Part shown: one piece after another, positions 3,662 to 22,185 of the stretch | Layout of the letters: every line of letters starts with the position of its first letter | How positions within the stretch are numbered: position 1 is the stretch's first letter | Virus record (IMG/VR): IMGVR_UViG_3300027770_000048 | Direction: 5' to 3' (one strand) | DNA length: 64,000 nucleotides | Origin: a virus | Lineage: Duplodnaviria; Heunggongvirae; Uroviricota; Caudoviricetes | The notes under the pieces: model-generated | What the model was told of the DNA's origin: nothing | What the model saw: the letters and a program-made list of their open reading frames with translations, nothing else | Database searches by the model: none | Program-made: the position numbers and the translations under genes

Positions 3662-3875
3662 TGATGAATTATTTGAGTATTTAGATGCAAAAGCATTACA
3701 CTTAAAACAATACACATCACCATTGAGTAGTTATAAAACAAAAAAGTTTGCAAGTATTGGAGCAGCAATATCCAATACCGAATTTGACTACGATAGTGTA
3801 AAGCAAATAGCAAAAGAGAACGAACAAAAAGGATACGAAAAATTTATAAAAGATAAAAACAAAAACAATGAATAG
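3654..3875 (+). CDS. hypothetical protein
   Basis: ORF 3618-3875 trimmed to in-frame ATG 3654 (MSDDELFEYL). Confidence 0.35.
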   Translation: MSDDELFEYLDAKALHLKQYTSPLSSYKTKKFASIGAAISNTEFDYDSVKQIAKENEQKGYEKFIKDKNKNNE

Positions 3876-9006: not shown

Positions 9007-9281
9007 CAATAAATAATTTAGACAAAATAGTTAGATACCCGATAGGATATACCTTTCGTGTTAAGTCAATGGTATTAGGTCATACAAATTATCATATCAG
9101 TTTAATAGATGGTAAAGGTGGATGTAGAGACTTAAAACTTAATCGTATAAAAGGTAGACGAGGTTTATATAAATTATCATACGGAAACTATTTATTACAT
9201 TTGAAATTTTCAGACATACACAATTTAGATTTATTTTGTGCACAAATAAAACAATTAATAATTTTCCATGTTAACAATTAA
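9000..9281 (+). CDS. hypothetical protein, paralog of the next gene
   Basis: Both start MLTI(N/K)N... and are of similar length. Confidence 0.4.
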   Translation: MLTINNLDKIVRYPIGYTFRVKSMVLGHTNYHISLIDGKGGCRDLKLNRIKGRRGLYKLSYGNYLLHLKFSDIHNLDLFCAQIKQLIIFHVNN

Positions 9282-9537
9282 AAACATACAAACTATAATA
9301 GGTGAAACTTACAACGAAGTATTTAATGTTATTGGAGTTAAAGAGGAAAAATCGTATTATGAATTTACATTAGGATACGCAACAGTTGGCAAACCAAATT
9401 ACGAAACAATATTACTATATAGAGAACAAACCGACAACGGAATGTATGTTATGGAATACAATAGTAAAACGCTTTGGTTAAATACGAATGAGTTTGACAC
9501 GATTGATAAGATTATCATTTGCATGCAGACTATCTAA
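9268..9537 (+). CDS. hypothetical protein, paralog of the previous gene
   Basis: MLTIKNIQTI vs MLTINNLDKI. Confidence 0.4.
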   Translation: MLTIKNIQTIIGETYNEVFNVIGVKEEKSYYEFTLGYATVGKPNYETILLYREQTDNGMYVMEYNSKTLWLNTNEFDTIDKIIICMQTI

Positions 9538-9569
9538 TTTGGTAAAGTGAAAAATTTGTCGTATATTTA
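9538..9569 (+). promoter_or_regulatory. conserved phage promoter element
   Basis: tttggtaaagtgaaaaatttgtcgtatattta; ATG of the UvdE gene is only 5 nt downstream, so the mRNA is probably leaderless. Confidence 0.6.
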
Positions 9570-9573
9570 CTAT

Positions 9574-10461
9574 ATGAGTATAGGATATGCATGTATTAAC
9601 CTTTCATTAGGTAAAAAGATTACAACGAATAGAACAATGGTTAAACGAACTTTCATAGCAAAGGGAGTTGACTATGTATCGGATTTGGTATTGCAGAATG
9701 TTGCAGACTTAGAAAAGATTATAGATTGGAACGAACAAAACGGAATTAAAATGTATCGCATGAGTAGTGAGATGTTTCCGTGGGCAACCGAATACGAATT
9801 TACAGACCTTAAAGATTGGAACGAAATACAAAAGATACTACAAAGATGTGGTGCAAAGGCAACAATGTATAAACAAAGATTATCATTTCACCCCGGTCCG
9901 TTTAATGTATTAGTTTCACCAAAAGAAAATGTGGTATTGAATACGATTAAAGATTTAGAAGTGCACGGCAGAATTATGGACGCAATGGACTTATCTAAAA
10001 CACCTTACAACAAAATTAATATACATTGCAACGGAGTGTATGGAGACAAACGAAGTGCAATGGATAGATTTATAACTAACTTTGACAAACTATCTAATTC
10101 AGTTAAGACAAGACTAACAATTGAAAACGATGACAAAGCAAGTATGTATTCAGTTAAAGACTTAATGTATATACACAATGCAATAAAGATACCTATTGTA
10201 TTTGATTATCACCACCACACATTTAACACAGGAGATTTGAGTGAACGAGATGCATTAGCATTAGCAATTACAACGTGGCCGAAAGGTATAACACCGGCAG
10301 TTCATTATTCCGAAAGTAAAGCATTACATGAAAACAATACAAAAATTAAAGCCCAAGCACATTCCGATTATATTACAACCATCCCCAATACATACGATAT
10401 GGGTGTGGACATTATGGTTGAAGCAAAACAAAAAGATTTAGCAATATTGAAATTTATATAA
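9574..10461 (+). CDS. uvdE: UV DNA damage endonuclease (UvdE family)
   Basis: N-terminus MSIGYACINLSLG matches the UvdE signature (RLGYvC.nL.L); TIM-barrel-like HPGPF, LTIENDD, DYHHH motifs. Confidence 0.8.
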   Translation: MSIGYACINLSLGKKITTNRTMVKRTFIAKGVDYVSDLVLQNVADLEKIIDWNEQNGIKMYRMSSEMFPWATEYEFTDLKDWNEIQKILQRCGAKATMYKQRLSFHPGPFNVLVSPKENVVLNTIKDLEVHGRIMDAMDLSKTPYNKINIHCNGVYGDKRSAMDRFITNFDKLSNSVKTRLTIENDDKASMYSVKDLMYIHNAIKIPIVFDYHHHTFNTGDLSERDALALAITTWPKGITPAVHYSESKALHENNTKIKAQAHSDYITTIPNTYDMGVDIMVEAKQKDLAILKFI

Positions 10462-10795: not shown

Positions 10796-11143
10796 ATGAG
10801 TTTGACAATAAAGAACTATAAAAAATTAGAAAGTTGGTCACATAATTATAAAGAGTTTATGATAGGTGAGGTAACCGAAAACCAAAATGAATATTGTTTT
10901 AGAGTGGGATATAACGGCATACCTTATACAATAAAGATATTTAGACATGGAACAAGTACAGTTGAATATGAAGTAGTATTAAGGGATGGAGCAGATATTA
11001 CACAATACGGCAGAGAATGGATAAAAGGTAGAAAATTAAAATCAAAAGAATTGACTGCATTAATATTCGAAGCATTGATAGTAAGATTTAAACCAAAAGC
11101 ACAGGGAGTAAATAATCCCTTTTATTCAAACGGCCCATTTTAA
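10796..11143 (+). CDS. hypothetical protein (115 aa)
   Basis: ORF track. Confidence 0.45.
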   Translation: MSLTIKNYKKLESWSHNYKEFMIGEVTENQNEYCFRVGYNGIPYTIKIFRHGTSTVEYEVVLRDGADITQYGREWIKGRKLKSKELTALIFEALIVRFKPKAQGVNNPFYSNGPF

Positions 11144-11150
11144 TAACAAA

Positions 11151-11175
11151 GGGGCGGGGGTTGGGGGGCAAGTCG
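11151..11175 (+). repeat. GC-rich inverted repeat, left copy
   Basis: ggggcgggggttggggggcaagtcg; its reverse complement recurs at 20185-20209; only two copies in the window. Confidence 0.8.
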
Positions 11176-11474
11176 AATTAGGAAATTTTTTTGATAGTCA
11201 TGCAAAACCAAAATAAGATAGTATGAAAATAATAACAATAACAATTTTTATGATTATGATAGTAGCATCATTGATAGTAGTATATAAAGAATTAACAAAT
11301 AATAAAACAAAAATAAAATGGAAAGGTTAAAAAGGATTTGGAATTTAGTATTAGTGCCAACGGCATTTTTCTTAGGAGCATTAAATATGTGGATAGGTGA
11401 AACGGCAGTAGGATGTTTATTTATTCTATTTGCGACAAACGAAACTATTAACAATGACAATAAAACAAAGTAAT

Positions 11475-11726
11475 ATGAGAGTAGAATTAGGAATGAGTTT
11501 ATTTAGTAAACGAGAAACCTTATTAGGATTAGAAATTACAACGCACAACGGAATAACGGCGAGTGAAGATGCACTATATAACGAAAGGATAGTTGAATTT
11601 AGTATTGGAATTATCTTTGCGATATTCACAATAGGTTTCGTTAGCAAAGGTGAAAAGATTGATACGCCGGATATGGATAATCTACAAAGAGCAATGAAAT
11701 CATTTGAAAGTGAAATGGACAAATAA
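11475..11726 (+). CDS. hypothetical membrane protein
   Basis: ORF 11430-11726 trimmed to ATG 11475; hydrophobic segment IGIIFAIFTIGFV. Confidence 0.3.
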   Translation: MRVELGMSLFSKRETLLGLEITTHNGITASEDALYNERIVEFSIGIIFAIFTIGFVSKGEKIDTPDMDNLQRAMKSFESEMDK

Positions 11727-11735
11727 GTAAGTAGT

Positions 11736-12278
11736 ATGAGAATATTAATTATTGCATTGGCGAGAAGTGGTGGGTATCAATTAAATGAATGGTTGGCATT
11801 GGAATTGGGATATAAAATGATACACGAACCAATATGGAATAATAAATCCATTGAAGGAAACGATATTGTAGTAAAATATAACATTAGTGAAATTGAAAAT
11901 AGAATAGATATTGATTTCAGTAATTGGGACAAGATAATTGGATTGACGAGAACCGATGTAAGAGAATGTTCAATATCACATACCAAAGCAGTACAACGAA
12001 AGGAATGGAGAAGAGGGTATGAAGTAAGTGATGAATGGATAATAGAAAACGAAATAGACATAAAACATTTTGAGGGATGGATAAATAATGCAATTGATTA
12101 CATGAATGGAATAAACGAAATTCATTTAAGAGTTACATACGAGAGGATATACAATACAAAAGAGGACATACAAAGAATAAAGGATTACATAGGTATAACA
12201 AATACAAAGTATGAACATCTATTGGATAACACAAATAGATTAAGGAATAGAAGTAAAACAAAACGAAAGGTAATATAA
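11736..12278 (+). CDS. hypothetical protein (180 aa)
   Basis: ORF track. Confidence 0.45.
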   Translation: MRILIIALARSGGYQLNEWLALELGYKMIHEPIWNNKSIEGNDIVVKYNISEIENRIDIDFSNWDKIIGLTRTDVRECSISHTKAVQRKEWRRGYEVSDEWIIENEIDIKHFEGWINNAIDYMNGINEIHLRVTYERIYNTKEDIQRIKDYIGITNTKYEHLLDNTNRLRNRSKTKRKVI

Positions 12279-12404
12279 AACGATTTTGAATAACGAGATA
12301 AAATAAATTCAGCAAACATTAACATTGATAATGATAAGAATAACACTACTAATACTACTGATATACATAATATATAAGAGTAGACAAGATAAATAAATAA
12401 AGGT

Positions 12405-12935
12405 ATGAATAAGAAACAAATGAATGATGAACACTTAAAAGACTTAAACAATGTAATGCAAATACCCAATGTAAATAATTACTACATTGATAAAAAGTAT
12501 AAAAAGATTTGTTATAAGAATAAGGAAGGCAAGTGGATGTATTGTAAAAAGATACCAACCAAACCTGGATATGTTGCAATGTATAATAACGGACAATATA
12601 TTGAAGTGAATGAAAGGAGTTTAATCAATAAGATAATGCCACCCACCGAAACACAAATACAAAAGAAATTATTTAAAGAGAATAAAAGATTAAAAGAGAG
12701 AGACGGGAGATACAATGTAGGTGTGGATACGGGAGTAATGAGTACACAAACGATTGAGTTACCTATCAAACAAAAAGAAATAGTTGAAAAGGTATTAGTA
12801 TTGAGTAATGCGGATAAGCAGAAACTGAAAGCTAGTAAACAAAAACTAAATACGATAAGAGGAACAATAATAAAGAATTTACCTTACACAATTTCAGTAT
12901 TGAATGAATTGGGATATGAAGTCAATCAAAAATAG
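12405..12935 (+). CDS. hypothetical basic protein (176 aa)
   Basis: ORF track. Confidence 0.45.
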   Translation: MNKKQMNDEHLKDLNNVMQIPNVNNYYIDKKYKKICYKNKEGKWMYCKKIPTKPGYVAMYNNGQYIEVNERSLINKIMPPTETQIQKKLFKENKRLKERDGRYNVGVDTGVMSTQTIELPIKQKEIVEKVLVLSNADKQKLKASKQKLNTIRGTIIKNLPYTISVLNELGYEVNQK

Positions 12936-13194
12936 TATATCAATCAATACCATATCAAAATAAATAAATTAGTGTTAATTAGTGGGTGAAAGTGGTAATA
13001 AGTGTTAAAGAGTGGTAAAAGGTTATATGTATCAAATTAAAATCGTTACATACTTACACACTACAATAAAACTAAAACACTATAAAACTATATCAGGGAA
13101 TGAATTTATATCCCACCCATCCGCACACAGCAAAGATTTTTTTACGGGCAGAAATAAATACGACCAAAAGAAATTCTGTTTTTGCAGTAGTTAA

Positions 13195-13638
13195 CAGGAA
13201 ATTATTCTGTTGAAGTGAATTTATATCGTATGAAACCCTTGCCACCATTGAATTGCCGGATGTGCACTCTAACTATTAAGATACGAAAAATTATTGACAT
13301 TGCCAAAACTCTTGCCAGTATTAGATTGCCTCTAACATATCAGTTGATTCATTAGATATTATTTAATTCAACGTGGAGCTAAGTTAGAAATTATCTAATA
13401 AAGTAAAGTAATACCTTTACGAAATTCAATTTTGGTAAAGTTATAGCTTGACTTGTAACTCGTTGATAATCAGTACATTAGTATAACTCATTGATTATCA
13501 GTGTTTTACAGACCAAAAATTCTTTATTGAGTATCAGTCAGTTACATATATTATTTTTTGTAATAGGCATAACTCGTTGATTGCCAATAAAAACTTTTCC
13601 ATCAATCCATTGCCAGTATAAAATATTGTCGTATCTTT
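13195..13638. repeat. non-coding iteron-like repeat region (candidate origin or regulatory hub)
   Basis: TAACTCRTTGATWATCAG three times (13461-13478, 13486-13503, 13572-13588); ATTGCC/CTTGCC hexamer at least seven times; no credible ORF. Confidence 0.5.
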
Positions 13639-13640
13639 AT
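13608..13640 (+). promoter_or_regulatory. degenerate copy of the conserved promoter element
   Basis: cattgccagtataaaatattgtcgtatctttatg shares the ...attgtcgtat.ttta core; the ATG follows directly. Confidence 0.4.
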
Positions 13641-14052
13641 GTATTGGGTTGAGAGAATGACCCTTCACATAGTAAAAAATTATAATATGAATAGTAGAAT
13701 GACAAACGAATTTACCGAAACCGCTTTTAACACATCTCGTAATGAGAGACCTATTTATAGGAATTTCGCGAGTAGTAAAATGAGTAATTCAGTTAAACCA
13801 AAATCAATGGTTGAATTTACAGACTTTATGGGTCGTAAACATATCGTTGCGGTTCGTAATAATACCGAATTGAAAAAACAAATGAAGTTTTTTGGTATGT
13901 TGAAAAAAGAAAGTTCAACGATTAAACAAATTATTTCATCGTACCCTATTAAATTAGGTAAGGTTGAAAAAAGGTTTATCGCTGAATGTAAGAGAGAATT
14001 AAAGTCAGTATTGAAATTGAATAACAAACAATTGGATATTGTATTAGCGTAA
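13639..14052 (+). CDS. hypothetical basic protein (137 aa)
   Basis: ORF track. Confidence 0.4.
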   Translation: MYWVERMTLHIVKNYNMNSRMTNEFTETAFNTSRNERPIYRNFASSKMSNSVKPKSMVEFTDFMGRKHIVAVRNNTELKKQMKFFGMLKKESSTIKQIISSYPIKLGKVEKRFIAECKRELKSVLKLNNKQLDIVLA

Positions 14053-14075
14053 TTAGTAAAGTAAAAAATAAGAAT

Positions 14076-14318
14076 ATGAAAAGTAAAGTAAACCAAAAGT
14101 CTCTATATGAGATTAAGAAAGTCAAAAGAGTTATGAGAATGAAGTCCGAAGGATTTGAACCTACATCTTTTGAAGTATATAAAGTATCAGGTCCTAATAA
14201 ATTTAGGAAATACTTTGTAAGTCGTAAAGACGCTAAGTCATTCATTGATGGGTATACCGATACCAAAATGACGATAGGAATAGTAAAAAACATTATGAAC
14301 GAAATTAAAATGAAGTAA
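14076..14318 (+). CDS. hypothetical protein; shares an SGP-containing motif with 15363-15731
   Basis: FEVYKVSGPNKFRKYFVSRKDAKSFIDGY vs YEVIELSGPKMDKPRIFVDETSVRKYIGEL. Confidence 0.4.
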   Translation: MKSKVNQKSLYEIKKVKRVMRMKSEGFEPTSFEVYKVSGPNKFRKYFVSRKDAKSFIDGYTDTKMTIGIVKNIMNEIKMK

Positions 14319-14319
14319 T

Positions 14320-14502
14320 ATGAATATAAAAAATCAAATATCACTAACAATGACTAAGAAACAATTAGAGACCATTGTATACACTATGGGTATCGCATTA
14401 GATACTGATTGTCCTGCAATGAATAAATTGAGTGATAAAAAAATAGAAAAGATTGCAACACTATATGAAGTGTTACATAACATGTCAAACCAAATAAGAT
14501 AA
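14320..14502 (+). CDS. hypothetical protein (60 aa)
   Basis: ORF track. Confidence 0.35.
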   Translation: MNIKNQISLTMTKKQLETIVYTMGIALDTDCPAMNKLSDKKIEKIATLYEVLHNMSNQIR

Positions 14503-14619
14503 TATGAGAGAAACGATATCAATAGGGGAGTTAGTAATATTAACCCTCGCGAGTATAATAACATTCGCATTAGTCAAAACAATTTTAGATACAATCTATA
14601 ACAAAATAAAAAGTAAATA

Positions 14620-15024
14620 ATGAATAAAAATAGTAACGCACCAACACATAATCCACATACATTTGACGGATTTGATTCAGCAAATGAAACGTGGGAAAAT
14701 AAAGTAGGATATGATTCAGCAAACAAACGAATGGTTGCGAAAGTATATAAACACTTATACAATGTAATGAATTTTGAAGTGAAACCATCGTGGTTAAAAG
14801 TAATTACCGAAATGCTAACCGAAGATAATAAATTAGGTAAGGTAAGTCTTAACGGATATTATTCAACGATTAGAAAAAACTTAAAGGACATTGAAGTAAT
14901 CAAATACAATGGTCGTAAGGGATTGAGTAAAGGTAAGAATTGGGAAAGGTTTTATAGTGATGAAGATTGGAGTTGGTTTATAACTAACACAAATAGTGGT
15001 GGATATGGTATTATAGTAAAATAA
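14620..15024 (+). CDS. hypothetical protein (134 aa)
   Basis: ORF track. Confidence 0.45.
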   Translation: MNKNSNAPTHNPHTFDGFDSANETWENKVGYDSANKRMVAKVYKHLYNVMNFEVKPSWLKVITEMLTEDNKLGKVSLNGYYSTIRKNLKDIEVIKYNGRKGLSKGKNWERFYSDEDWSWFITNTNSGGYGIIVK

Positions 15025-15035
15025 AATTAATTAGT

Positions 15036-15353
15036 ATGAATAGAAAGAAACGAAACGATAGAAACCACATAGTATATGAAATAGTCAATACTGAAAATGG
15101 TAAGAGTTATATTGGTATTACTGCCGCAATAGGTAGACGATTCCACTACTCTGCTAAATTAAGATTACAAAAACACTTTAGTCGAGCACGAAAAGAAAAT
15201 AAGAATTGGGCACTATATAACGATATGAGAGAGTACACACAGAGTGTATACGAATTGTTTATCGTTAAAGTAATAAGAGGTAAAGCTGCCGCACACCAAT
15301 ACGAAACAAAGCAACTGCAAAAGTTTCATTATGAATTAAATTCGACACATTAA
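15036..15353 (+). CDS. GIY-YIG domain mini-nuclease
   Basis: HIVYEIVNTENGKSYIGITAAIGRRFHYSAKLRLQKH matches the GIY-YIG motif (GIY...YIG....R...H) with a downstream conserved E region; 105 aa, catalytic domain only. Confidence 0.55.
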   Translation: MNRKKRNDRNHIVYEIVNTENGKSYIGITAAIGRRFHYSAKLRLQKHFSRARKENKNWALYNDMREYTQSVYELFIVKVIRGKAAAHQYETKQLQKFHYELNSTH

Positions 15354-15362
15354 AATAAAGAT

Positions 15363-15731
15363 ATGAGTAAGAAAACAAACGAAATCAAATTAGGTAAAAG
15401 AGGTTATAAAGCCGTAGTAAAGAATAAGAAGTTCAACTTTGGTGATGGCAAGCACATTTACGAAGTCATTGAGTTATCAGGTCCTAAGATGGATAAGCCT
15501 CGTATCTTTGTTGACGAAACATCGGTGCGTAAGTATATAGGTGAGTTAGAAGTAGAAACCAAAATGGACAAGCTTGAGACTAGCTTAATCAAAAATGTAT
15601 TAAGTAAGAAGGATAAAAAAGAAGTCCTTGCGTCTAAAGAGTTAAGCGATATGATACCAGCATTAGAGGTATTAGTTGATGCTAATTTTAGAGACATGAA
15701 TGCAAAGAGACCCGAAGATACGGATAAATAA
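15363..15731 (+). CDS. hypothetical protein (122 aa)
   Basis: ORF track; related to 14076-14318. Confidence 0.4.
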   Translation: MSKKTNEIKLGKRGYKAVVKNKKFNFGDGKHIYEVIELSGPKMDKPRIFVDETSVRKYIGELEVETKMDKLETSLIKNVLSKKDKKEVLASKELSDMIPALEVLVDANFRDMNAKRPEDTDK

Positions 15732-15733
15732 GA

Positions 15734-15765
15734 TTTGGTAATGTCAAAAATTTGTCGTATATTGT
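15734..15765 (+). promoter_or_regulatory. conserved phage promoter element
   Basis: tttggtaatgtcaaaaatttgtcgtatattgt. Confidence 0.6.
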
Positions 15766-15875
15766 ATATAACAAAGAGACATTAACAATAAAGATACAAG
15801 CGAAGCTGAGGTAAAAGGAAGCCGCCTCAATGGAGCTTGAACAATTAATAACTTAAAGGCAACCAAAAAAAGAAC

Positions 15876-16187
15876 ATGGCTAAGAAAATTAGTACAAAGG
15901 TGAATTATCAGGTAACAGAATTAGTAAACAACTTAAACGAAGCGGCAACGACTCAAAGTGAACAAAAGAGAGATTTCTTTACCACAAGAGCATTGTATAA
16001 CGCAAAGAGATTATCAACTATCTTAAGCAGTGCTAAAGTAGGTGCTATGGCATTAGTGTTAACTATTGGTATGGTAGCGTGTGGTTCTCCTGCTTCAACT
16101 GAAGTTAAGGCTGACTCAACTGCTCCAGTAGCTGTTGATACAACTGCAACTGCTCCAGTAGTGGATACTGCAAGTGCAGTAAAATAA
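15876..16187 (+). CDS. hypothetical membrane-anchored protein with Ala/Thr/Val-rich repeat tail
   Basis: TM AMALVLTIGMVACGS followed by the repeat STAPVAVDTTATAPVVDTASAVK; DNA repeat actgctccagtag twice; GC content well above neighbours. Confidence 0.4.
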   Translation: MAKKISTKVNYQVTELVNNLNEAATTQSEQKRDFFTTRALYNAKRLSTILSSAKVGAMALVLTIGMVACGSPASTEVKADSTAPVAVDTTATAPVVDTASAVK

Positions 16188-16275
16188 TTTAGCTCGAGGT
16201 AGTGAAGTTCACATACGCTTTAAGTCGTATAGTACAAAACTATGTATTCAACAAAGCAACATACATCTAATTAAT

Positions 16276-16419
16276 GGTGAGCGAGAATATATTGAATTTC
16301 ATTCCCTCGTCCTAATGAAGCGGTGAAGGTGTAATGGTATCCACACGGACGTAAAAGCCCGCGGGAAGCATGATAGTCTCCCAGATTATAGGAGTTAGTT
16401 CAATTCTAGCTCACCGCTC
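16276..16419 (+). ncRNA. candidate structured RNA with tRNA-like acceptor/T-arm/D-arm (not a canonical tRNA)
   Basis: GC-elevated block; 7-bp stem gcggtga(16320-26)/tcaccgc(16411-17) next to gttag-TTCAATT-ctagc (T-arm-like) and gtgt-aatggtatcc-acac (D-arm-like); the central 47 nt does not fold into a standard anticodon arm; alternative outer stem ggtgagc(16276-82)/gctcacc(16409-15). Confidence 0.3.
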
Positions 16420-16498
16420 TATATCAAAAGCATATTGGTTACTTTACAAATAGGTTATTCTCCGATTTACTTTACAAAGAAAGCTTTGATAGTTAACA

Positions 16499-16529
16499 AA
16501 GTGGCTCCCCAATAGAGCCACTTTTTTTA
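16499..16529 (+). terminator. rho-independent terminator
   Basis: gtggctccccaatagagccac hairpin followed by ttttttt. Confidence 0.7.
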
Positions 16530-16545
16530 TAACGAAATAACACGA

Positions 16546-16953
16546 ATGATTTACTTAAACACAAAGATTGAAAGTTTAGAGAGAAAGCATGCCGTTGCGT
16601 TAGCAAATATGGCATTGCGATGGTGCCGGAAACATATGGGTACAAATAATAGAAAAAAGTATCAACCCATATGGTCAGTCCGCATAGGGTGGGATAGTGA
16701 TTGTGGTGAATATGATGCAACGGATAATGAAGTACATATATACTATAACAACTGTTACGATGTAAGGGAACTAATAGGGACCTGTATACACGAATGGACA
16801 CACCAACTACAACCAATATTAACAAAGTACGATAAGTACCCAGGCTCATATAGTAGAAACCCATATGAGAGGCAAGCAAGACGAAACGAAGATAAATATT
16901 TAAGACCATGTTGGTCACACATAAAACAAAAAGCAAAATGGATTACGCAATAA
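16546..16953 (+). CDS. putative zinc metallopeptidase-like protein (HExxH; SprT-like)
   Basis: GTCIHEWTHQLQ contains HExxH; 135 aa. Confidence 0.45.
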   Translation: MIYLNTKIESLERKHAVALANMALRWCRKHMGTNNRKKYQPIWSVRIGWDSDCGEYDATDNEVHIYYNNCYDVRELIGTCIHEWTHQLQPILTKYDKYPGSYSRNPYERQARRNEDKYLRPCWSHIKQKAKWITQ

Positions 16954-17168
16954 TGAAATTGAAACAAGACGAGATAGTATTAATGAAAAAGATTAAAGGC
17001 CTGCAAGACGGCAAACCTAAATGGGCTGCAGCAGAACAGTTAGATGAAATCAGGTCCGCAATAGAATTGTTAGAGAGATACAATAATATAACGGAGCAAG
17101 ACATACAAGATGAGGACAACTACTTAAAGCAAGTGTTCGCTACTCACCCTGCTAAGGCAAAAGCTTAG
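16938..17168 (+). CDS. hypothetical protein
   Basis: ORF 16908-17168 trimmed to ATG 16938 (MDYAIMKL). Confidence 0.4.
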   Translation: MDYAIMKLKQDEIVLMKKIKGLQDGKPKWAAAEQLDEIRSAIELLERYNNITEQDIQDEDNYLKQVFATHPAKAKA

Positions 17169-17213
17169 TCGGACAATCTTAATAAAAATAAATTCAGTTC
17201 AATAAACAATAGT

Positions 17214-17420
17214 ATGAATAGTGATAGTATAGACATAGAGAAGTATAATACAATAGAGATAGATAGACATAACACTATGGGAGATAACAATTTCATAGAG
17301 TGGTGTAAACAATATAACATAGGTAGCAGAGTAGAGGTAGTATCTGAACAAAGACTTAAAGCAAATGATTTAATGTCGCAGTACACTAAGTACACAAACT
17401 ACATAAGTAAAAGAAATTAG
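17214..17420 (+). CDS. hypothetical protein (68 aa)
   Basis: ORF track. Confidence 0.4.
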   Translation: MNSDSIDIEKYNTIEIDRHNTMGDNNFIEWCKQYNIGSRVEVVSEQRLKANDLMSQYTKYTNYISKRN

Positions 17421-17464
17421 ATTTGGTTTTCTAATGTTTTCATTTTTATTTTAGCAAGAGTGAG

Positions 17465-17620
17465 GTATTAAGGTTATTCTCACGACCCCGCAATGATTAA
17501 GTTCGTTGCGGGATTCTTGTGCTCATTACTTTTTGCACGAGACAGTTACGTGTAACTAGGCAAAAGGAGCTCGCTGAAAATCGGGTCGGATACGTGCGAA
17601 TACCGGGGACCACTTTTTTT
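17465..17620 (+). ncRNA. candidate structured ncRNA
   Basis: GC-elevated non-coding block with hairpins gtgagg..cctcac-like (gagtgaggtattaaggttattctcac) and cccgcaa..ttgcggg, ending in ccggggaccacttttttt. Confidence 0.3.
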
Positions 17621-17753
17621 CGTATAGGAGCAATTTTGACATGATATATGATATACACAAAGTGAAATTAACTGTTTTTATTCTACTTAAGTGATACTTA
17701 TTTATACGATATCGGAATTAGTTGACTTATTTTTTAACCAAACTAAATTAAAT

Positions 17754-17864
17754 ATGGAAGTATTAGATTTCGTTTTACACTATCCGTTTTGGGTAGGTGT
17801 ATTAGTAGGGTGGAAAGTATTACCTTACGCGATTGGATTTGTAAAAAGGTTTATTAAATTATAA
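17754..17864 (+). CDS. micro-ORF, 36-aa hydrophobic peptide
   Basis: MEVLDFVLHYPFWVGVLVGWKVLPYAIGFVKRFIKL; immediately followed by a strong terminator. Confidence 0.35.
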   Translation: MEVLDFVLHYPFWVGVLVGWKVLPYAIGFVKRFIKL

Positions 17865-17869
17865 ACAAA

Positions 17870-17902
17870 GGCCCTCTACTTAAAATGTAGGGGGTTTTTT
17901 TA
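17870..17902 (+). terminator. rho-independent terminator
   Basis: ccctctacttaaaatgtaggggg hairpin + ttttttt. Confidence 0.7.
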
Positions 17903-17923
17903 TTCAAAGATATTTATTAGTGT

Positions 17924-18421
17924 ATGATAAAGTTAAAAGATATATTAAAAGAAGCATCAGGTAACCAAATGACATTTGGTGAATATGGATATAGTATTAA
18001 ACAAGTAGAATCCGAAATTAAAAAAGTATTAGGTAGTTTAATAAAGAATATAGAACCATTTTCAAATGATAAAGACGAAATAGGACATATTAAATTTAAC
18101 TTTAAAGATAAAGACTCAATGAAGAAATTTTTATCAAAAGATGAATCCTATATAAATTCTATTGAAAAGTTATTATCCAGAAAATTTGGTGTTGATGTAA
18201 TGATAACAAGTATGTATAAAGGTGATTTGATGTTATCGTTTTTTATATTCTCAGAGATGAAAGATGTTAAAAAACAAAAGAAATCAATGGACGCTATGAT
18301 AAAACAAAAAACATTGAAAGTATTAGATAGTGTTGTTGATAATGTTAAACCATATAGTAAGGACGCAGCATTCCACATTGAGCAGGCAATTAGTATTATA
18401 GAAAAATTTAAAGGTCAATAG
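17924..18421 (+). CDS. hypothetical protein (165 aa)
   Basis: ORF track. Confidence 0.45.
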   Translation: MIKLKDILKEASGNQMTFGEYGYSIKQVESEIKKVLGSLIKNIEPFSNDKDEIGHIKFNFKDKDSMKKFLSKDESYINSIEKLLSRKFGVDVMITSMYKGDLMLSFFIFSEMKDVKKQKKSMDAMIKQKTLKVLDSVVDNVKPYSKDAAFHIEQAISIIEKFKGQ

Positions 18422-18422
18422 T

Positions 18423-18617
18423 ATGAAATTAAAAGAATTATTAGTAAAGATGTATGAGGGGCATTGTGAAAGACTACCTAACGAATCCGATGAAGATTAC
18501 TTAACCCGTTGTGGGAATGATATGTTTAATCAACAATTCGGAATAAGTCAGTTATCTAACATACCCAACGTAATGAAAAAGAAAATAGTAATACCTAATA
18601 AGATTAATCCTAAATAA
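18423..18617 (+). CDS. hypothetical protein (64 aa)
   Basis: ORF track. Confidence 0.4.
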   Translation: MKLKELLVKMYEGHCERLPNESDEDYLTRCGNDMFNQQFGISQLSNIPNVMKKKIVIPNKINPK

Positions 18618-18618
18618 A

Positions 18619-18918
18619 ATGTTAAAAGAAGATACTTTTGTAAAAACAGCGTTAGACTTTGGATGTGCAACCGGTGTAGCAAAGATTATAGGGTATACTA
18701 CATTAAAAGAAGAAAAGAAGGGTATACCTATTGAAACTTATAAAAAGGTAGACGATGAATTGATAATTAACAATATAATCAATATTTTAATAGATGAGGG
18801 TGGATATGAGAAGTGCATGAAAAAGGTATTAGTAGAAGAGAAAAAAAGAAATGGCAAAACAAAAAGAGTTACAATATATAAAAAGATAATGAATTGGTAT
18901 GATACTACAACAAGTTAA
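18619..18918 (+). CDS. hypothetical protein (99 aa)
   Basis: ORF track. Confidence 0.4.
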   Translation: MLKEDTFVKTALDFGCATGVAKIIGYTTLKEEKKGIPIETYKKVDDELIINNIINILIDEGGYEKCMKKVLVEEKKRNGKTKRVTIYKKIMNWYDTTTS

Positions 18919-19975
18919 CAATCCAGAAAGGTATTCTAAGAAAGGTGATGTATGGTCAGTAAACGCATCGACAGGTTCTTTAATTACGACCCCTTACACA
19001 TTCCCTGCAGTTACTAAAGAATTGGTTTTATATCCAGTATTAGATAACGATGTAGTAGCAATTTTAAAAATAGAAGATAACTACTATTGTTCAGAAGAAA
19101 TATACCAGGACCTCATGGATTCAAAGAACATTAATCCTCACTTTTGGTATGATAGAGTAACGGATGTAAAGACTATATCAGGTTCAGTAGAAATAGGTAA
19201 CACTATCCCTATTATTGAGATAGATTTAGAAGCAATCAAAGAAACGGCTAACATTGAAAGTATTATGATACCTTATTCAGGTGTTAAAGAAGTTGATTGG
19301 ATATACGATAGAGAAGAAGGAGATGACCCTAATATCCCTATATCTACTAAGTTAATACAACAATTAAATTATTCTTTAACTAATAACACAGATAGACCAG
19401 AAGATATATGGGAGTTATGGGATTTAAACCTTGCTGCTAACTATACTATTCAACAATTGCCTGTTTTATCTCCTACTACTGATAAGGCTGTCGTAGATAA
19501 TGCCCTCCTAACTAAAAATCTGGAAGAGTTAAGTAAAAGAGTCATTGCTCTAAGAAAAGACTTTAACGACATTAAAAGAATATACTATACCGGTAAAGTC
19601 AAAGATGATACCATTACATCAACTCGCTATACATCTCGTGCCATCGGTAGTAACGCACCTGAAACCGAAGTGAAGCAGGAGAATAGAGCTAATACAATAT
19701 ATAAGTCAACGGAGATAGTAGATGTTACAAAGAGTGGCACGGATAAAAGAGGTGATGCATTGGATAATTCTATTACAACTAAAACTGAGGGATTAAAATC
19801 GGAACTACAAGATACTAAAACAACTACGCAAGCGGCACTAAATACACAAGCTGAAAATCTTAAACGTGCTCAAGCCGGTGACGCAGAAGCACAAAGACAA
19901 CTTGCCGCAGAGTTAAAAGCATCTAATCAAAGAACTACCGAACTTGCTGCTAAAATTTCAAATCCTGGTAAATAA
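18899..19975 (+). CDS. hypothetical protein (358 aa) with disordered K/T/A/Q-rich C-terminus
   Basis: ORF track; largest gene inside the bracketed 9 kb block; no recognisable catalytic motifs. Confidence 0.5.
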   Translation: MILQQVNNPERYSKKGDVWSVNASTGSLITTPYTFPAVTKELVLYPVLDNDVVAILKIEDNYYCSEEIYQDLMDSKNINPHFWYDRVTDVKTISGSVEIGNTIPIIEIDLEAIKETANIESIMIPYSGVKEVDWIYDREEGDDPNIPISTKLIQQLNYSLTNNTDRPEDIWELWDLNLAANYTIQQLPVLSPTTDKAVVDNALLTKNLEELSKRVIALRKDFNDIKRIYYTGKVKDDTITSTRYTSRAIGSNAPETEVKQENRANTIYKSTEIVDVTKSGTDKRGDALDNSITTKTEGLKSELQDTKTTTQAALNTQAENLKRAQAGDAEAQRQLAAELKASNQRTTELAAKISNPGK

Positions 19976-20184
19976 TGTGACATGGTTAAGAGATTGTATG
20001 ATATCTTTATTCTTATAATGATGTTTCCTGTCATTTTCCTTGCTGCCTGTGGTCTTATTATCTATTGGGTGTGTAAGTTTCCGTTTTGGTATATAGAGAG
20101 AAAGAAGTGGTATAGAAATGAGAAATAGAGATATACTATCAATAGAGGTACGATATTCTTATTCCCAAAAATTTTCTTAAAAAA

Positions 20185-20209
20185 CGACTTTGCCCCCAAC
20201 CCCCCGCCG
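20185..20209 (-). repeat. GC-rich inverted repeat, right copy
   Basis: cgactttgcccccaaccccccgccg is the reverse complement of ggcggggggttgggggcaaagtcg; T-run follows on the minus strand. Confidence 0.8.
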
Positions 20210-20217
20210 ATATTTTA

Positions 20218-20250
20218 TTTGGTAATGTGAGATACTTATCGTACATTTAA
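20218..20250 (+). promoter_or_regulatory. divergent copy of the conserved promoter element
   Basis: tttggtaatgtgagatacttatcgtacattta. Confidence 0.45.
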
Positions 20251-20301
20251 TTAAAATCAATTATAATTATATTTATAGGGGAATATAAATAACAAAACAA
20301 T

Positions 20302-22185
20302 ATGAGAGCAGTCATAATAGGTACAGACTTTATAAAAGATACTGATGGTTCATTCAAAGCGTTGGAAACAAATACCAATATCCAAATGGATATGGATATG
20401 CGATATTATTTTGACCCAACTGTATTTGACACAATAATTAGTGGTAGTACAATTGATGAAATTGTTTTAATTTCAAAACCAGTATTAAATCAGTCAAATG
20501 AATATATTGAATTAGATACTCCAGATACAATTTGGAATGATGAAATACAAGCTCGTACTTTTCCAGAACAATTAAAAATGTATTGTACAGGTTCAAATAT
20601 TACATTTACAGAAACAAATTCAGACAACAACGCGGTTACAATACCATATGTTGAAGATAGTGATAATAAATTAATAATTAGAATTGCTTACGATACAACT
20701 GCTTTAATAGATGATACATACGCAAGAGATAACTGGGAATTTTTAAAGTTAATGCATGATGACAATCCGGATTCTATTGCAAAAACATATATAAACGATA
20801 TAGATTTAGGATTTGATTCAATTGGTACAACTATAAGAGATAATGGAAATCATCCAAATTATTGTATTAAAAAAAGATATACAAATAAAAATGGATTATA
20901 TCCAAAAGTATATAAAATATCTACTCAAGAAGAATTGGCAAATTTAAAAGCAAATTTACAAATAGATGAGTATGTACAAGAATTTATATATAATGAATCA
21001 GACACTATAAATAATAAATTAAAATATTATAGAAGTACGGATTTAGTATACGGACCTGATTTAACTATTTCTAATTTATGGGTGTCCGAACATACCAATT
21101 GGGTTGGTATCGAAGAAAATTGTGATTACGATGATAACAATGAAATACAATATTGGGAAAGGCCAAGATATTTACCAAAACCAACTGACGAATCGACCAA
21201 AACACCTAGATTATCAGGTGATGAAACAACAAAAGTTATTTTACCAGATGGTTCAAATACACTATTATCATCATTAGTAGTAGGGGATTCTATTAAATCA
21301 ATTAACATTCCAGGATTAGATTTAAATGAAACTAATTTTAATTTTTTAACATGGTCAAGTTCATTCAATGATGTTATGAGTGGGTATACTACATCCACAG
21401 CATCTTTACAAAAAATGGAAGAAAAAGAAAGTTGGGTAGGTTGGTTTGTTGAATTTACAACACAAGATGGTATAACTTTTTCAGATGTCTCTCAAGCTGA
21501 AATATTAATTAAATCAGGAGAAACTGACAATTATGTTGTTAAATTTATTGCATATGCCATGCTTAAAGTTAATGATACAGTTTTATTATTTGATAATCAA
21601 ACAAATACATTGGTTGAAAAAGTTATTCAATCCAAATATCATACTTTTGGTAAATCAAATGTATTTGTAGCGGATTTTGAACAAATTGATGTGTTTTTAT
21701 CTTTAGAAGAAACAAATACAGAAACGCCTAGATATGGTATTATCACACACAATTATAACTATGATTGTGCAAGTTATATAAGCAATTGGGGTGGTGGCTA
21801 CCAAGTATTTTGTTATGGATGTTTAAAAGGTAGTTGGAATGGATTTAATGGACCTGGTTGTTGTAGAATAGGTAATTGGTATGGTGGCGTATGGAATATA
21901 GATGTAATATATCCTCCAGGACCACCAGCAATTTTTAATGGATGGTGTAATTGGCAAAAACCTTCGGATATTCGTCTTAAAGAAAATATAGTACTAGTAG
22001 GTAAATCAGAAAGTGGAATTAATATATATCAATACAATTATAAAAATGATTTAAAATTATATGAGGGTGTTATTGCACAAGAATTGATTGGTACTAAATT
22101 TGAAGATGCTCTTATTATTGAAAAAGATGGTATGTATTCAGTAGATTATAAAAAATTAGATGTAGAGTTCAAAAAAATAAATTAA
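20302..22185 (+). CDS. tail fibre/tail spike-like protein with C-terminal intramolecular chaperone (peptidase S74) domain
   Basis: C-terminus PSDIRLKENIVLVGKSESGINIYQYNY...GVIAQEL...YSVDYKKL matches the S74 auto-cleaving chaperone of phage fibres; Cys/Gly/Trp-rich insert NYDCASYISNWGGGYQVFCYGCLKGSWNGFNGPGCCRIGNWYGG. Confidence 0.65.
   Translation: MRAVIIGTDFIKDTDGSFKALETNTNIQMDMDMRYYFDPTVFDTIISGSTIDEIVLISKPVLNQSNEYIELDTPDTIWNDEIQARTFPEQLKMYCTGSNITFTETNSDNNAVTIPYVEDSDNKLIIRIAYDTTALIDDTYARDNWEFLKLMHDDNPDSIAKTYINDIDLGFDSIGTTIRDNGNHPNYCIKKRYTNKNGLYPKVYKISTQEELANLKANLQIDEYVQEFIYNESDTINNKLKYYRSTDLVYGPDLTISNLWVSEHTNWVGIEENCDYDDNNEIQYWERPRYLPKPTDESTKTPRLSGDETTKVILPDGSNTLLSSLVVGDSIKSINIPGLDLNETNFNFLTWSSSFNDVMSGYTTSTASLQKMEEKESWVGWFVEFTTQDGITFSDVSQAEILIKSGETDNYVVKFIAYAMLKVNDTVLLFDNQTNTLVEKVIQSKYHTFGKSNVFVADFEQIDVFLSLEETNTETPRYGIITHNYNYDCASYISNWGGGYQVFCYGCLKGSWNGFNGPGCCRIGNWYGGVWNIDVIYPPGPPAIFNGWCNWQKPSDIRLKENIVLVGKSESGINIYQYNYKNDLKLYEGVIAQELIGTKFEDALIIEKDGMYSVDYKKLDVEFKKIN

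Follow-up and report, generated by a model that had tools for sequence, protein, structure and literature searches.

A paired, inverted G-tract module bordering a 9 kb block of small genes in an uncultured T4-like phage lineage

The locus and its two modules

The DNA examined here is a 64,000 nucleotide (nt) stretch of a tailed phage genome (IMG/VR record IMGVR_UViG_3300027770_000048, Caudoviricetes), referred to below as the window, and the subject is a pair of G-rich inverted repeats within it that face each other across a block of small genes. The window has a GC content of approximately 30% and encodes a T4-type baseplate wedge, a fused SbcCD-like nuclease and long-fibre proteins. UvdE (9547-10461) lies to the left of the block and a fibre-like protein with an S74 chaperone domain (20302-22185) to its right, and the block genes include a GIY-YIG protein (15036-15353) and an HExxH protein (16546-16953). 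The nearest isolates at the baseplate protein are Flavobacterium phage immuto and Microcystis phage Mel-JY01, at just ~39% identity. Phage-like contigs carrying the motif have been binned into a Pelagibacterales metagenome-assembled genome (MAG) and a Cyanobium MAG. Identical proteins occur in JGI samples 3300027754, 3300009161 and 3300010160, and long contigs of relatives include IMGVR_UViG_3300042673_001035 (116.7 kb) and 3300042888_001115 (100 kb). The window yielded neither a tRNA nor a tmRNA, and Rfam gave nothing at the gathering threshold across the window and nothing relevant at E<=1 across 10.9-20.4 kb.

Each repeat is the outer end of a longer module, which occurs as a short form at the left border and a long form at the right. 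The parts of the two modules, the block between them and an adjoining promoter-like motif, of a family here called P*, are as follows.

11149..11238, plus strand: short-form module in full, an island of conserved DNA 90 nt long, in the same orientation as the genes
11151..11168, plus strand: short-form G-tract box GGGGCGGGGGTTGGGGGG, three G-runs; G4Hunter 2.36; kept in 27 short-form copies
11172..11175, plus strand: GTCG box of the short form; found in every recovered element and part of every search anchor
11176..11192, plus strand: A/T tract AATTAGGAAATTTTTTT, with a T7 run at 11186-11192
11191..11219, plus strand: TTGATAGT box (11191-11198) as the -35 of a promoter-like TTGATA-17 nt-TAAGAT
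11214-11219, plus strand: -10-like TAAGAT of this promoter-like site
11199..20134, plus strand: enclosed block, approximately 25 small plus-strand genes
20135..20142, minus strand: long-form TTGATAGT box within the conserved TATCTCTATTGATAGT, 6 nt past the stop of open reading frame (ORF) 19982-20128
20167..20184, minus strand: long-form A/T tract, T6-AAGAAAA-T5 on the minus strand
20185..20209, minus strand: long-form G-tract box and GTCG; G4Hunter 1.88; read on the plus strand as CGAC (20185-20188), C5AAC6 (20193-20205) and GCCG (20206-20209)
20219..20247, plus strand: promoter-like motif TTGGTAATGTGAGATACTTATCGTACATT of the P* family, directly next to the long form and pointing toward the fibre-like gene at 20302

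Site 1 on the plus strand (11151-11175) reads GGGGCGGGGGTTGGGGGGCAAGTCG, and site 2, the reverse complement of 20185-20209, reads CGGCGGGGGGTTGGGGGCAAAGTCG. Compared by eye, the two agree at 20 of 25 positions ungapped and at about 23 of 25 when two 1-nt indels are allowed within the G-runs. An indel-tolerant pattern, GGCGGGGG(N0-1)TTGGGGG(N0-1)CAA, matches the window exactly twice, on opposite strands, with 0 matches expected from 100 shuffles. The same two sites are the only G4Hunter peaks above 1.5 in the 64 kb (2.36 and 1.88), and C5 runs occur on the plus strand at site 2 only. Both sites are intergenic, site 1 starting 8 nt past the stop of ORF 10796-11143 and site 2 falling in the gap that separates the stop of ORF 19982-20128 from the promoter of the 20302 gene. 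T-runs follow the G-boxes at 11186-11192 and, in minus-strand reading, at 20179-20184 and 20170-20173. An earlier sequence-only reading of this DNA had described an inward-facing inverted pair at these coordinates, matching at about 23 of 25 positions, placed in gene gaps, followed by T-runs and without further copies in the window; all of this was borne out, the match figure provided that the two indels are allowed. Similarity between the copies continues inward past the 25-mer through GTCG, the A/T tract (AGGAAA-T7 at site 1, T6-AAGAAAA-T5 at site 2) and the TTGATAGT box. Outside the repeats no target-site duplication was found, the flanks being TTTAATAACAAA and ATATTTTATTTG.

Conservation among relatives and behavior of the enclosed block

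Scans of IMG/VR, anchored on patterns and on proteins, recovered many related contigs of 25-35% GC. In all copies the parts follow one order: G-tracts, a linker of 0-19 nt, GTCG, a T-run/AAGAAA-or-AGGAAA/T-run tract, and TTGATAGT. In the short form GTCG and GATAGT are 15-21 nt apart and the module is co-oriented with the genes (20/20), and in the long form the distance is 28-59 nt, the conserved TATCTCTATTGATAGT is present and the module is anti-oriented (40/40); these orientation counts in part reflect common descent rather than independent events. One short and one long form face inward at a distance of 8,436-9,556 nt in the window and in 6 relatives. A census anchored on the non-G part of the module gave 84 distinct elements from related uncultured phage contigs, 27 short and 57 long, and 81 of the 84 have kept at least two runs of G>=4. 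The separator of the last two G-runs varies, being TT in 64 and otherwise TA, AA, CC, C, CT or others. From the last G-run to the first T5+ run the median distance is 17.5 nt in short forms and 8 nt in long ones. In three variants (L138, L184 and L199) a CCTCC linker creates a 9-bp hairpin, CGGCGGGGG/CCTCCGTCG, followed by a T-run, as judged by eye. Scans with the A/T half alone were swamped by random AT-rich matches.

The search for further copies, proposed with the first description, gave a divided answer. There are none elsewhere in the window, and a second copy of one form does exist in some relatives, in tandem within one sublineage (L160, L026-L029) and as two long forms in L165. Megablast of 10-21.5 kb against 50,697 isolate phage records gave no match, sensitive blastn of each module against isolate phage records gave chance matches only (E ~1), and a full-text literature search for GGGGGTTGGGGG returned nothing relevant. 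As far as these records reach, the module is carried by no isolate phage. Judged by sequence, the recovered elements are orthologous copies of one lineage-specific boundary module, which is strongly conserved, apparently undescribed and apparently confined to an uncultured T4-like lineage. Its inverted orientation may have been inherited from one ancestral inverted duplication.

The block between the modules is largely stable. Homologues of window ORFs 13639 to 19982 are found in the same order and on the same strand in five merged relatives, at 25-93% amino-acid identity, and the right half of the block keeps this order in 23 more loci. The core at 13.6-20.1 kb is syntenic among relatives, and 11.24-12.93 kb is variable. 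No relative that covers the block has it inverted or lacks it. Pfam and PHROGs gave no transposase, recombinase, integrase or invertase match in the block proteins, in agreement with the sequence-only reading, which had recognised none there. That reading had also offered a mobile or exchangeable cassette with terminal inverted repeats and had proposed aligning relatives for presence, absence or replacement of the block at the repeats; in these alignments the core is colinear, never missing and never inverted. Because of this synteny, and because there is neither a target-site duplication nor a transposase, we reject both the mobile cassette and the invertible segment. The inward-facing inverted geometry is all that would recommend transposon-like terminal inverted repeats or crossover sites of an invertible segment. 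Divergence has made the two arms into position-specific forms, all ORFs of at least 150 amino acids in the window are on the plus strand, and we regard such an origin as extremely improbable. A segment of the Gin/Hin/Cin type was discarded on similar grounds, with one orientation in 6 paired relatives and 23 right-border loci and no recombinase.

The GIY-YIG protein of the block (15036-15353, 105 amino acids) consists of this domain only and is 71-97% identical across relatives, above its neighbors. Since such conservation is unusual for a homing endonuclease, its sequence suggests a housekeeping role.

Although the core is stable, the borders coincide with mosaic junctions. Homology between relatives in blastn breaks at 11150, 11238, 20135, 20210 and 20247, all of which are module edges, and at the short-form island matches stop at 11149/11150 and 11238 in several relatives. 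A homologue of ORF 11430-11726, which is to the right of the short form in the window, is to its left in three relatives. The long form is part of a hypervariable region of fibre cassettes (18.9-27.3 kb), flanked by ORFs (16546 and 27324) with 91-99% identity in close relatives. In L108 the long form is replaced by 1.28 kb with two genes. Each of these observations would fit modules that are recombination hotspots for cassette swapping in the manner of the PeSL (promoter early stem-loop) elements, possibly stimulated by G-quadruplexes like the pilE G4. The PeSL of T4-type phages (PMC2839356, PMC4122927) provide a precedent, being likewise short conserved intergenic modules of variable T4-like regions, in which a stop signal is joined to a promoter-like box and at which indels or rearrangements between relatives have their junctions. 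A PeSL, however, is a sigma-70 early promoter with a stem-loop, present in many direct copies that flank single ORFs, whereas in the module G-tracts replace the stem-loop and usually two inverted copies per genome bracket a stable 9 kb block. The junctions between relatives that mark PeSL are found at the module (five breakpoints and one relocated gene), and the union of sigma-70 promoter and stem-loop in one motif is not, as the module has no stem-loop.

The number and orientation of the copies count against a hotspot. There are usually just two per genome and they are inverted, so that exchange between them should invert the block, which is seen in no relative. Breakpoints at the edges would be expected passively for any strongly conserved island, and the core block does not vary. 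We consider the hotspot improbable. The recombination-prone boundaries that the sequence-only reading had listed as another option are upheld in part, as breakpoints do fall exactly at the module edges and the core between them is stable.

The pilE G4 has four G-tracts, needs a small RNA (sRNA) promoter inside the motif and acts in gene conversion from silent copies; no four-tract, sRNA-promoter or gene-conversion feature is seen in the module. Reportedly a recombination initiator in Neisseria (attributed to Cahoon and Seifert, 2009), it resembles the module in having G-tracts with 1-2 nt loops beside a hypervariable surface or host-range gene region.

Several observations concern the fibre-cassette region itself. 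Between 18899 and 27222 the homologues of ORFs 20302, 22359, 24312, 25049, 25649 and 26572 are shuffled among 23 relatives and share just 24-50% identity. The first ~25 codons of ORF 20302 and its 5' untranslated region form a separate conserved island. Four contigs (L515-L518, shown from 6 with an identical 20302 protein) break off within the last block genes, 229-895 nt upstream of its start, and two independent Logan assemblies stop at the same base. These ends suggest that, just inside the right border, strains vary or coverage changes.

A different explanation of the borders is that the 9 kb block is a direct terminal repeat, present once in the assembly and carried in each virion at the two genome ends, with the modules as cut or nick sites for a packaging nuclease on either side. 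The pair is unique and inverted, its spacing of 8.4-9.6 kb is kept in 7 genomes, and the ~25 small genes of the block recall host-takeover repeats. There is direct precedent in the Twort-like staphylococcal myoviruses, whose terminal repeats of ~7.6 kb are bracketed by 12-bp inverted repeats (PMC7596081) and hold ~24 small early genes (PMC11598898). As in these phages (Kayvirus), inverted repeats stand here at both junctions of a multi-kb small-gene block (7.6-9 kb). The Kayvirus block is a demonstrated terminal repeat, whereas the present block is known from sequence and the nearest isolates have T4-type packaging genes; the Kayvirus repeat TAAGTACCTGGG is unrelated to the module G-tracts. 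In make-up the module resembles herpesvirus pac1, a T-rich core flanked by G-rich, quadruplex-forming runs (PMC13595911). Both pac1/pac2 and the module pair G-rich quadruplex-forming runs and a T-rich element around a repeat; the module signals, unlike the pac pair, are 9 kb apart. In the herpesvirus 'a' sequence the pac signals are no more than ~100-300 bp apart, and cleavage is directed between them.

Two independent contigs, L053 (at position 1) and L239 (at position 3697; GenBank VHCC01000082.1), end 3 nt after the long-form GTCG (GTCGTTT|), as genome termini might. L239 and L231 overlap by 127 nt, which marks an assembly-graph vertex, and the G-box half of L231 is joined there to unrelated sequence. 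Contig ends are not enriched at the element beyond L053 and L239, and contigs read through both borders unbroken. The extra tandem copies in L160 and L026-L029, the two long forms of L165 and the absence of a long form from L108 also fit a terminal repeat poorly. The nearest isolates (Immutovirus) encode a T4-type large terminase, portal and capsid, the terminase being a T4-type Terminase_6N protein, and headful packaging is therefore predicted. The search for the large terminase of the present lineage by means of the Immutovirus protein returned only Immutovirus-like contigs. Taken together, we hold a terminal repeat to be unlikely, and we are slightly more doubtful of its full version, a T4-like branch with a fixed-end genome, a 9 kb terminal repeat and borders marked by G-tract/T-tract signals of pac1 design. 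If the modules did border a terminal repeat, they would define the genome ends and the packaging mode of a large uncultured phage group and connect the packaging signals of phages with those of herpesviruses; fixed ends would mean a packaging-signal logic shared across HK97-fold viruses and a departure from T4-like headful packaging.

Transcription signals and candidate functions

The sequence-only reading had named, as its last option, paired protein-binding or G-rich terminator-like boundary elements, and this fits better than the cassette, as the pair behaves as conserved boundary elements. Tentatively, we favor fixed boundary signals in which a structure-based transcription barrier is joined to a promoter, a function that we regard as possible rather than probable. 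The starting point is what is observed, namely the module anatomy, the pattern of conservation, the position relative to genes and promoter-like motifs and the predicted quadruplex propensity; from the sequence we infer quadruplex formation in vivo, polymerase stopping and its direction.

The G-runs are kept while the loops between them vary, which points to a structural element such as a G-quadruplex. When transcribed or unwound, the G-tracts would form a quadruplex, be it in RNA, in an RNA:DNA hybrid or on the template strand, and RNA polymerase would stall over the weak T/A tract 8-18 nt downstream. Such a site would follow the logic of the mitochondrial CSB II (conserved sequence block II) terminator, with a G-quadruplex in place of a hairpin. 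With quadruplexes switched on, the ViennaRNA energy of the G-strand is -30.0 instead of -17.7 kcal/mol at site 2 and -23.1 instead of -19.4 kcal/mol at site 1, the favored fold having two tetrads. The layout GCGGGGG-x-GGGGGG...GGAAAU(U) matches the CSB II RNA GAAGCGGGGGAGGGGGGGUUUGGUGGAAAU, and in the short form this CSB II-like layout lies in the sense direction. CSB II (PMC4176368, PMC3488243) and the module share two or three long G-runs 1-2 nt apart, with GGAAAU and a U-run within ~10-20 nt of them, and the polarity of the G-strand matters. At CSB II fewer than four G-tracts suffice, through an RNA:DNA hybrid quadruplex. CSB II is, however, a single site downstream of a defined promoter and tied to replication priming, whereas the module consists of two inverted sites in a bacterial virus with invariant GTCG and TTGATAG; the likeness is read from sequence.

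The positions of the two forms suggest what each might do. At the short form, transcription of the upstream UvdE/'MLTIKN' operon would end, and a new start would be made from the module's own TTGATA box. In most relatives the short form starts 6-38 nt past the stop of the upstream gene, usually a member of the MLTIKN family. In several relatives, L025 among them, an MLTIKN-family ORF begins directly after GATAGT, so that the downstream gene is transcribed together with no less than the inner half of the module. The TTGATAGT box resembles TTTGGTAAT, the -35 region of P*, and a -10-like hexamer follows it at 17 nt in 9/32 short forms, some with the P* signature CGTAT, and in 2/60 long forms; the frequency in short forms fits a terminator-promoter junction. 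After the TTGATAGT box of the long form in the window there is no -10-like hexamer. The long form would separate the last block gene from the P* promoter of the fibre-like gene, between which it lies, and ATTACCAAA, the complement of the P* motif TTGGTAATGTGAGATACTTATCGTACATT, is conserved beside long forms in relatives.

A number of findings weigh against this barrier. The G-rich strand of the long form is the template strand for every annotated gene, and no promoter was found that would send polymerase into the long form in the direction giving G-rich RNA; the two sites would therefore need different quadruplex modes. As most copies have just 2-3 G-tracts, an intramolecular three-tetrad quadruplex is excluded for them. 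GTCG and TTGATAG do not vary in the recovered copies, in part by construction since both belonged to the search anchors, and a quadruplex leaves both unexplained. The G-tracts have been lost with the rest of the module retained in L318 and in the second copy of L165, and L108 has other genes in place of the long form. Finally, the phage does use ordinary hairpin and T-run terminators, at 16498-16524, ~17.87 kb and 51.6 kb.

Other RNA-level and promoter explanations were tried and set aside. An intrinsic hairpin terminator has its T-run, but the window copies have no C-rich partner and a terminator scan makes no call; a real hairpin exists only in the L138/L184/L199 variants, where it counts in favor of the barrier. 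Long-range RNA pairing of the two copies was rejected since comparing the listed sequences showed no covariation of the linkers within a genome. An antisense promoter at the long form was rejected, a -10-like hexamer following the TTGATA box in just 2/60, and so was a GTCG-N17-GATAGT two-box promoter, given the long-form spacing of 28-59 nt and the ATG directly after GATAGT in L025 and others. There is no leftward transcription unit ending at the short form, all ORFs of at least 100 amino acids up to the minus-strand P* being on the plus strand. Neither the Bacteroidetes promoter consensus TTG-N18-20-TAnnTTTG (4 on the coding strand vs 8) nor the T4 late promoter TATAAATA (23 vs 22 expected) is enriched.

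The constancy of GTCG and TTGATAG is instead what would be expected if the modules were sites of one sequence-specific DNA-binding factor, of phage or host, that reads these two boxes. The A/T tract would be bendable, and the factor might bridge the copies to loop out or co-regulate the block. The boxes remain constant over spacings of 15 to 59 nt, the nucleotide conservation of the module stands out as an island from diverged flanks, and the part from GTCG to TTGATAG survives in the copies without G-tracts. A double-stranded DNA site works either way round, so the inverted pair would need no special explanation, and the likeness of TTGATAGT to the -35 region TTTGGTAAT of P* speaks for a binding site as well. 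On the other hand, the block and its vicinity gave no candidate DNA-binding protein, the G-box varies like a structural element rather than a base-specific site, and the variable spacing has no clear helical phasing. We see a binding factor as a serious contender that is nonetheless on the unlikely side.

A noncoding region of ~700 nt inside the block (12936-13638, core 12936-13310) brings in replication. It has 71-88% DNA identity in many relatives, and it contains five 10-11-nt iterons (ACCAC/AACAC, minus strand, ~12962-13020) and a conserved GGTGGGATAT box. The minus-strand P* promoter at 13278-13306 fires into the iterons in the window and in 7 further loci of relatives. No covariation supports a structured RNA in this region, which by its sequence is a candidate replication origin or regulatory array. 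The modules could be replication signals of such an origin, as CSB II-like primer sites, polar fork barriers or priming sites. The iterons and promoter lie within the block, and termination at CSB II does make replication primers (PMC4176368). The geometry also agrees, with the G-rich strand at both sites being the leading-strand template for forks leaving the block. The triplet GTC, the recognition site of the T7 gp4 primase, is contained in GTCG. The argument is, however, wholly geometric. The iterons are 1.8 kb from one site and 7 kb from the other, nothing nearby was recognised as an initiator or primase gene, and the cumulative GC skew has no shift. A role in replication appears improbable to us.

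Further features of the window bear on its transcription more generally. The 29-nt P* family, with consensus TTGGTAATGTCAAAAATTTGTCGTATATT, has 9 members in the window where 0.02 are expected. Eight of the nine are on the plus strand just upstream of genes (6354, 9539, 15735, 20219, 27265, 28489, 30850 and 53577), and the ninth is the minus-strand member at 13278-13306. Those at 9539 and 53577 end 6 nt before the start codon, which suggests leaderless or near-leaderless mRNAs; from the position of the former it follows that UvdE starts at ATG 9574 and not at GTG 9547. A second motif, (G)ATATTTAT(A/T), occurs at ~17.90, 37.87, 49.68, 51.64 and 57.95 kb and at 20266-20277, preceding structural genes by 10-25 nt and often immediately following a hairpin terminator, and may be the late promoter of the lineage. 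The MLTIKN(I/L) proteins are tandem paralogues of ~90-115 amino acids, found in the window at 9268-9537 and 10796-11143 (the latter without a Pfam match) and in L020-L029, L120, L154, L160 and L216. The short form almost always follows a member of this family and sometimes lies between two. The noncoding gap 16188-16545 is structured (z = -2.75) and ends in the canonical terminator at 16498-16524. Within it, at 16320-16417 on the plus strand, are 98 nt with a tRNA-shaped fold: the stem GCGGTGA/TCACCGC is acceptor-like, the GTTCAATTC loop resembles that of a T-arm, and there is a long extra arm. Neither ARAGORN nor Rfam makes a call for it.

A similar string in bacteria and the meaning of the module

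The string GGGGGTTGGGGG..GTCGTTT was found 49 times in 185,579 bacterial genomes (L230-L278), mostly GC-rich ones, where it directly follows the stop codons of unrelated genes. In these genomes it is the 3' arm and tail of terminator hairpins, for example CCCCCTCTCC..GGAGAGGGGG, with a C-rich partner. In the 18 loci searched Rfam has no match at the motif, and a single tRNA elsewhere. In one Fimbriiglobus MAG and a related Gemmataceae MAG the string belongs to a repeat family. We take the bacterial hairpin-plus-G-tract elements to be BoxC-like. They have the string and its place after stop codons in common with the module, but a C-rich partner only in the bacterial copies. Because 49 is near a rough chance estimate of ~25, we treated them as analogous to the phage module, and they are probably not homologous to it.

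Whatever its function, the module made of G-runs, GTCG, T/A tract and TTGATAG is a searchable landmark by which fragmentary metagenomic contigs of this lineage can be oriented and compared, and it marks an edge of the hypervariable fibre-cassette region. If the quadruplex stop is real, the module would be a conserved, naturally selected terminator or insulator of a non-hairpin type in a bacterial virus. Its 84 natural variants would then show which positions matter, and would offer a test case for quadruplex control in prokaryotes.

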